A stretch of DNA of 64,000 nucleotides from Escherichia coli (GTDB taxonomy: Bacteria; Pseudomonadota; Gammaproteobacteria; Enterobacterales; Enterobacteriaceae). Positions within the stretch are counted from its first letter, which is position 1; each line of letters opens with the position of its first letter. Below, in pieces: positions 18,492 to 18,950 of this stretch. Where the stretch lies: NCBI RefSeq assembly GCF_003019035.1, contig NZ_CP027447.1; one strand, 5' to 3'. The notes under the pieces are model-generated. The model was not told the DNA's origin, searched no databases, and saw only the letters and a list, made by a program, of their open reading frames with translations. Both the position numbers and the translations under genes were made by a program.

Positions 18492-18523
18492 AAAATGGCG
18501 CTTTAAGAAGCGCCATTTTTTTA
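18492..18523. terminator. Bidirectional rho-independent terminator between convergent fdnI and yddM
   Basis: AAAATGGCGC-loop-GCGCCATTTT hairpin followed by T-run. Confidence 0.6.
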
Positions 18524-18805
18524 TTGCGTAACCAGACGGCGCAGTCGCGACACATCCACCGTTTTTTCAGCCTCTGCCAGGCTCCAGGCGTTTTGCAGAT
18601 TCAGCCACATTTGCGGCGAACTGCCGATCACCACGGAAAGTTTAATTGCCATTTCTGGCGTCAAAGCTGCTTTTCCGGTCAGCAATCGGCTTGCCGTTGA
18701 GGGAGCAATTTCCATTGCTCTGGCAAACTCGCGCAGGCTGACATTAAGTTCGTCCAGTGATTCCTGAATAATGTCCCCCGGGCGGGGATGATTGGCCATT
18801 TTCAT
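18521..18805 (-). CDS. yddM: HTH-type DNA-binding protein, HigA-antitoxin-like
   Basis: ORF 18521..18883; likely start at internal Met ([31 protein letters not shown]...), about 94 aa with helix-turn-helix. Confidence 0.7.
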
Positions 18806-18950
18806 TAGTGTCTTTACTCTCAGTAGCGTTCCTTCACCAGGAACACTATCATTATTGTTCCTTCCTACGCAACAATAATCCATTTAGCCATTTCATGTTG
18901 GAGAGAGTGCGATGCTGCGACCCGAACATGGCAGTCGCAGCAAAGGCCTC

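Follow-up and report, generated by a model that had tools for sequence, protein, structure and literature searches.

Solitary yddM beside fdnI in Escherichia coli as the probable surviving half of a degraded higB-higA operon

The HigB-HigA pair of Proteus vulgaris plasmid Rts1 (structures 4MCT and 4MCX; HigA-operator complex 6CHV) belongs to the same family as the yddM product and has the toxin-first gene order that we assign to the ancestral yddM locus. HigB of this plasmid is a ribosome-dependent mRNA endonuclease, and repression through inverted repeats by the helix-turn-helix (HTH) antitoxin, as in Rts1, would by analogy be expected for YddM. The two systems differ in that the Rts1 pair is complete and serves as a plasmid addiction module, whereas the yddM locus is chromosomal, vertically inherited beside fdnI and, in the genome considered here, without a toxin. 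Closer still is HigA-2 of CFT073 and NRG857c (2ICP, 2ICT), which is the same protein at the same fdnI-adhP site with the same operator palindrome. In these B2 strains the 92-aa toxin gene is kept upstream, whereas in the window (by which we mean the whole 64-kb stretch of E. coli DNA that was analysed) the toxin is deleted and the ~100 nt upstream are strongly diverged. The solved structure of CFT073 HigA is that of this very protein and is cited as YddM in PMC3968373. Bustamante and Vidal (2020) catalogued the pair as TA20 (parE-2/higA-2), with genes of 279 and 285 nt that overlap by one base, and reported that at this locus HS and K-12 encode the antitoxin partner only (PMC7232551). Given that report of an antitoxin-only locus in K-12, the solitary state of yddM was already known; what is new here is incremental, namely a map of the deletion, a census of alleles, the recognition of independent toxin losses, a conserved operator and the finding of synonymous-only variation.

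Two further K-12 systems bear comparison. YbaQ (PDB 2EBY) is a small Xre/HigA-like HTH protein that matches YddM at E 5.6e-9, but it is a distant paralogue of 113 aa encoded at a different locus; ybaQ is present as antitoxin only in K-12 and HS, and B2 strains have an adjacent ParE/HigB-type toxin gene (PMC7232551). The K-12 HigB-HigA pair (YgjN-YgjM) is toxin-first with an HTH antitoxin, like the ancestral yddM pair, but lies at a different locus (fadH-rlmG) and was absent among the PDB and tblastn matches to YddM or to its toxin. Its distribution is the mirror image of that of yddM, higBA (ygjNM) being complete in K-12 and HS and reduced to an orphan higA in NRG857c and CFT073 (PMC7232551). 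With regard to activity, ChIP-exo in K-12 placed YddM among ten candidates with peaks and among the six that yielded a motif, and also validated YbaQ as DNA-binding (PMC6237786). Genetic-interaction data loosely tie yddM to stress regulators (PMC9283627).

In the window, the region 18300-19200 (901 nt) matches E. coli SCU-301 at 100% identity, and its identity to virtually all other complete E. coli genomes is 96-98%. The PGAP annotation of SCU-301 gives the gene order fdnI, yddM (on the opposite strand), adhP. The gene and its downstream boundary are as follows:

18521-18805, minus strand: yddM coding sequence, 94 aa plus stop, WP_000781370.1 (TIGR02607, HTH_3, 2ICP/2ICT, PGAP in SCU-301)
18491-18520, no strand: bidirectional hairpin terminator common to the convergent fdnI and yddM genes (12-bp perfect inverted repeat; folds with z -3.7 and -3.4)

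YddM matches TIGR02607, 'HigA family addiction module antitoxin', at E 9e-27 (92.7 bits, the curated cut-off being 47.7) with an alignment spanning positions 1-80 of the 81 in the profile, and matches Pfam HTH_3 (Cro/C1-type helix-turn-helix) at E 9e-10. It is 100% identical to the protein deposited as 2ICP/2ICT under the name 'antitoxin HigA', and it matches P. vulgaris HigA at E 1e-18. Membership in the HigA family is, in other words, supported by a family-model score above the curated cut-off and by the presence of both the HTH domain and the HigA fold. The extent of the gene required correction. A minus-strand ORF of 120 aa is present at 18521-18883, and the earlier note had taken it as the gene; this is only the longest possible reading, and we rejected it as the real protein since its start lies 78 nt too far upstream. 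We place the start at 18805 because the HigA profile match begins at residue 29 of the 120-aa ORF, because 2ICP/2ICT is the 94-aa form and because the stop codon of the toxin gene, in strains that carry one, overlaps the ATG of yddM. The PGAP start for yddM also gives the 94-aa form.

The earlier note had described yddM as a HigA-type antitoxin gene without an adjacent toxin, and for this genome that description is borne out by Pfam searches of the flanking ORFs and by tblastn. The two-strand search for short toxin ORFs that it had proposed was run over 18484-19031 and found none: no ORF of at least 20 aa on either strand of that interval gave a Pfam match at E<=10, and when the cognate toxin from other strains was compared by tblastn with the whole window the best E was only 0.36. 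Rfam returned no RNA family at the yddM locus. The 50-nt fdnI-yddM spacer (18471-18520) is taken up by the terminator listed above, whose T-run overlaps the yddM stop codon, and the 145-nt yddM-adhP spacer by the adhP terminator hairpin, nested inverted repeats and the presumed promoter/operator. With no toxin coding capacity left in the window, the locus is not a complete type II HigBA module, and any remnant of the toxin amounts at most to its last codon and stop (CAC-TAA) or to the ATGAA of its start.

The solitary state does not extend to relatives, and to this extent the description given in the earlier note had to be limited to the present lineage. Of 5426 complete E. coli genomes, 1331 carry a 279-nt toxin gene just upstream of yddM, the two reading frames sharing one nucleotide, so that in these genomes, as in most related genera, yddM occupies the site typical of HigA immediately downstream of a HigB-type toxin gene, a site that it does not occupy in the window. 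The product of this gene (92 aa, WP_000605676.1) matches Pfam HigB-like_toxin PF05015 at E 1.4e-17 and shares about 58% identity with P. vulgaris HigB (4MCT_B; E 8e-32), with His54, the HPL motif and the C-terminal D-Y-H aligned between the two proteins. A scan of relatives, taking one genome per species, yielded 41 loci with YddM relatives. At nearly all of these a toxin precedes the antitoxin, lying at locus positions 2223-2498 in 20+ loci with the antitoxin at 2501. The toxin adjoins the yddM relative in E. albertii, in a cryptic Escherichia clade, in 11 of the 13 Citrobacter loci, in Cedecea, Buttiauxella, Pluralibacter, Enterobacter, Chimaeribacter and Erwinia, and in some distant taxa. 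The pair adjoins fdnH-fdnI in Escherichia, Citrobacter, Pluralibacter, Enterobacter and one further Enterobacteriaceae genome. The comparison across strains accordingly turned up what the earlier note had set beforehand as the case against itself, a conserved small toxin ORF adjacent to the gene in related genomes. Given that a toxin is found at nearly all related loci and that synteny with fdnI is retained, we take the toxin-antitoxin pair to be ancestral at this site and solitary yddM to be derived. Since the toxin adjoins yddM in relatives, the gene is better read as the surviving half of a degraded higBA operon than as a free-standing antitoxin look-alike.

Alignment with toxin-bearing alleles indicated that the toxin ORF has been excised almost exactly from the window allele. 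The scar is as follows:

18806-18827, minus strand: deletion scar and leader GCTACTGAGAGTAAAGACACTA, where toxin-bearing alleles have the Shine-Dalgarno sequence of higB and the toxin ORF of 279 nt (alignments, exact-match mapping)

Across the junction the window reads GGAACGCTACTGAGAGTAAAGACACTA-ATGAAAATGGCC, and toxin-bearing strains read GGAACAAGGATGAAGAGATGATAATGAATTTCAGACAC...(toxin)...TATCACTGATGAAAATGGCC over the same stretch. By exact-match mapping the position of the junction is ambiguous, two microhomologies fitting about equally well and both requiring extra small changes: (i) the ATGAA of the toxin start with the ATGAA of the yddM start and (ii) the CAC of toxin codon 7 with the terminal CAC-TGA, at which the B1-type allele still carries CACTGATG. 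The locus thus combines syntenic orthologous loci that have the toxin with a visible deletion scar, as expected for an orphan antitoxin from a degraded toxin-antitoxin operon, and the antitoxin ORF has stayed intact and conserved after loss of the toxin.

The ~100 nt upstream of the operon (18806-18912 compared with 1262-1400 of locus L003) differ by ~40% between toxin-less and toxin-bearing E. coli alleles, and in adhP and yddM on either side the divergence between the same allele types is only 1-3%. All toxin-bearing genomes have the B2-type upstream region, and a chimeric 150-nt query joining the K-12-type upstream region to the toxin matched none of the 5426 genomes, from which it follows that the intermediate allele has not been sampled.

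The sequence retained in front of yddM contains a set of nested inverted repeats, followed by the terminator of adhP:

18840-18861, no strand: perfect palindrome GGAACA-N10-TGTTCC, presumably the operator for HigA/YddM and overlapping the promoter of the operon (motif scan, conservation)
18824-18833, no strand: third GGAAC half-site, which pairs with the proximal arm of the palindrome as a second inverted repeat that overlaps the first (inverted repeat search)
18851-18879, no strand: 9-bp perfect inverted repeats ATTATTGTT and AACAATAAT around an 11-bp spacer at 18860-18870 (inverted repeat search, alignment, census)
18913-18942, minus strand: adhP terminator hairpin (fold -23.5 kcal/mol, z -3.0; alignments)

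The palindrome lies 35 nt upstream of the yddM ATG and is the single match to GGAACA-N10-TGTTCC in the window, where 0.11 would be expected. In 22 loci that extend from Escherichia to Erwinia and Xenorhabdus the palindrome recurs unchanged, 25-46 nt ahead of the toxin start, and GAAGGAAC is conserved in orthologous upstream regions. The segment 18851-18879 contains a conserved -35-like motif, TTGTTGCG, which flanks the palindrome, as does the third GGAAC half-site. By analogy with HigA and further HTH antitoxins we presume the palindrome to be a putative operator that overlaps the operon promoter; a simple sigma-70 scan of 18400-19050 returned no promoter. Toxin-bearing and toxin-less alleles also differ at the adhP terminator, the hairpin being followed by the T-tract CTGTTTTG in the former and by ATCGCACTCT, with no T-tract, in the window and other K-12-type alleles (18890-18955 compared with 1385-1452 of locus L003). 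Because the T-tract is missing, adhP transcription might read through into yddM in toxin-less strains.

The census of the 5426 complete E. coli genomes gave the following principal allele types:

Toxin gene present: 1331 genomes
Toxin-less allele of the window/K-12 type: about 2940 genomes
Same deletion, with the 11-bp spacer (18860-18870) between ATTATTGTT and AACAATAAT inverted: about 1060 genomes

The region containing yddM was found in 5413 of the 5426 genomes. Presence of the toxin gene does not always mean an intact toxin. In roughly 40% of evenly sampled toxin-bearing entries the gene is 278 nt long as a result of a 1-nt frameshift, and such genes are marked as pseudogenes by PGAP, for example in ST131. 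An independent deletion is seen in TR01 (O157:H7), where it begins within the operator and stops 47 nt short of the end of the toxin gene. Decayed toxins also occur outside E. coli, in Citrobacter sp. FP75, C. portucalensis, Xenorhabdus species and Chimaeribacter californicus. The frameshift, the TR01 deletion and the decayed toxins elsewhere argue that the toxin has been lost repeatedly through different mutations while the antitoxin stays. Loss of yddM itself is seen in E. coli GDSC2239PM, among the few genomes of the species without the gene, where copies of IS150 and IS3 replace yddM and the 3' part of adhP (locus L049, 2746-4892).

The TR01 allele is a mosaic (locus L005, 602-760), with a B2-type left flank, 29 nt of K-12-type operator and, joined to yddM, the final 47 nt of the toxin gene, and it hints at an unsampled ancestor that had a K-12-type operator together with an intact toxin. 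We considered whether this allele is typical of O157 and rejected the idea, as at most about five genomes have it; the other O157:H7 genome seen, ATCC 35150, gave a full-length match to the toxin-less 901-nt query (18300-19200).

Rearrangement of the operator region has gone further in some toxin-less strains. In the ~1060 genomes with the inverted spacer, GCGTAGGAAGG is exactly inverted to CCTTCCTACGC; these include O26:H11 strain 11368 (locus L047, 830-880) and many animal isolates. Both the -35-like motif TTGTTGCG and the distal GGAAC half-site are changed by the inversion, which might have arisen once and become fixed or might influence how yddM is expressed. In O166:H15, 29 bp of the operator are deleted between GGAAGGAAC repeats.

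Every E. coli allele examined encodes one protein accession, and the variable sites in the coding sequence are as follows:

Four toxin-less alleles: 9 segregating sites, 0 non-synonymous
Eight E. coli alleles: 13 segregating sites, 0 non-synonymous
Window compared with E. albertii: 12 differences, all synonymous (0 non-synonymous)

Since 75.5% of random single-base changes in yddM would be non-synonymous, the restriction of variable sites to synonymous positions indicates purifying selection on yddM. The argument is weaker than the raw counts imply, as some of the synonymous variation may predate the deletion or stem from recombination.

Taken together, we favor the reading that yddM is the orphaned antitoxin gene of an ancestral, toxin-first higB-higA operon beside fdnI and that it has been kept as a self-regulating DNA-binding protein; we put the probability of this at roughly 85%. 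By alignment, removal of the toxin ORF has evidently fused the promoter/operator region of the operon to yddM, as in K-12, and other lineages, judging from their alleles, inactivated the toxin independently with the YddM protein unchanged. A plausible sequence of events would begin with a chromosomal higB-higA operon, toxin first, next to fdnI, from which the 279-nt higB ORF would have been deleted almost exactly so as to leave promoter and operator in front of yddM. The YddM dimer would, through its HTH domain, still bind the retained GGAACA-N10-TGTTCC and repress its own promoter, and selection would maintain the protein, now presumably without a toxin of its own to neutralise, as an independent DNA-binding regulator that may have additional targets in the genome. 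Apart from the negative sigma-70 scan and the limits on the selection argument given above, two sets of observations are at odds with parts of this scenario. Firstly, the 11-bp inversion in ~1060 genomes and the 29-bp operator deletion in O166:H15 make the operator region unstable in toxin-less strains, which argues against a strict constraint on autoregulation. Secondly, yddM is dispensable, given that IS-mediated loss exists and that knockouts have been used in published screens. As an example, the locus offers a clean and well-sampled case of decay of a chromosomal toxin-antitoxin operon, in which the toxin was repeatedly lost and the antitoxin/repressor remained unchanged. Beyond annotation hygiene it carries little weight, although it does caution against two opposite readings, that of yddM as a free-standing transcription factor whose origin is unknown and that of yddM as a sign of a hidden toxin.

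The same rearrangements can be read another way. It is possible, though we lean against it, that YddM was domesticated after toxin loss and has been under strong purifying selection since then, whether as an independent regulator with targets of its own or to confer immunity to incoming plasmids that carry HigB. The repeated remodelling of its promoter would then serve to reset its expression and would not be a sign of decay. The 11-bp inversion, the operator deletions and the loss of the adhP T-tract, with its potential read-through, may all be counted as such remodelling. If YddM did protect against plasmid HigB or control other genes, the locus would provide a tractable example of a domesticated antitoxin in the bacterium that has been studied best.

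Protection could also be the whole reason for retention. Orphan antitoxins are commonly proposed to act in anti-addiction (PMC7354431), and on this account YddM would have been kept to neutralise related HigB toxins arriving on plasmids or phages, thereby freeing the host from post-segregational killing. Purifying selection on yddM without a cognate toxin is consistent with this idea, and HigB relatives were found on 454 plasmids, of which 89 are from Escherichia and 85 are conjugative. However, plasmid HigB proteins are less than 60% identical to the chromosomal toxin (39-58% among the matches listed, misfiled chromosomal records aside), and identity between YddM and their HigA partners is only about 36-57%. 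Type II toxin-antitoxin pairs are usually specific at such distances, and we regard this account as unlikely.

Equally improbable in our estimation is that yddM has no remaining function and is a leftover of the toxin-antitoxin operon that has not yet decayed. In support of this view, the gene is dispensable, as judged from its loss to insertion sequences and from the Keio knockouts used in published papers, its promoter/operator is rearranged in toxin-less strains and no phenotype has been firmly attributed to it. Against it stand the retention of the yddM region in all but 13 of the genomes in the census with an identical protein in all E. coli alleles examined, the absence of non-synonymous changes at any of the 9 (toxin-less), 13 (all E. 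coli alleles) or 12 (E. albertii) sites listed above, and the ChIP-exo result, by which YddM is made and bound to DNA in K-12 (PMC6237786). That an unrecognised toxin is still encoded nearby, as a small unannotated ORF, in another frame or as a non-HigB protein, is scarcely credible, for although small ORFs of 21-58 aa do lie around yddM on both strands, none has a Pfam match at E<=10, the tblastn search with the cognate toxin was empty and both spacers are already filled by terminators and by the promoter/operator.

Two minor observations concern the neighbourhood of the gene. The fdnI-yddM spacer (18471-18520; locus L002, 494-849) varies among strains by a 178-bp unit consisting of a copy of the terminator hairpin and a REP-type palindrome (GCCGGATGCGGCGTGAACGCCTTATCCGGC); the window lacks this unit, many strains have one copy, and K-12 has two in tandem that are 98% identical. 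Further away, on the plus strand at 14462-14520, Rfam identified a SECIS_3 element (84.3 bits) inside fdnG, and a selenocysteine insertion element is expected in this formate dehydrogenase-N gene.
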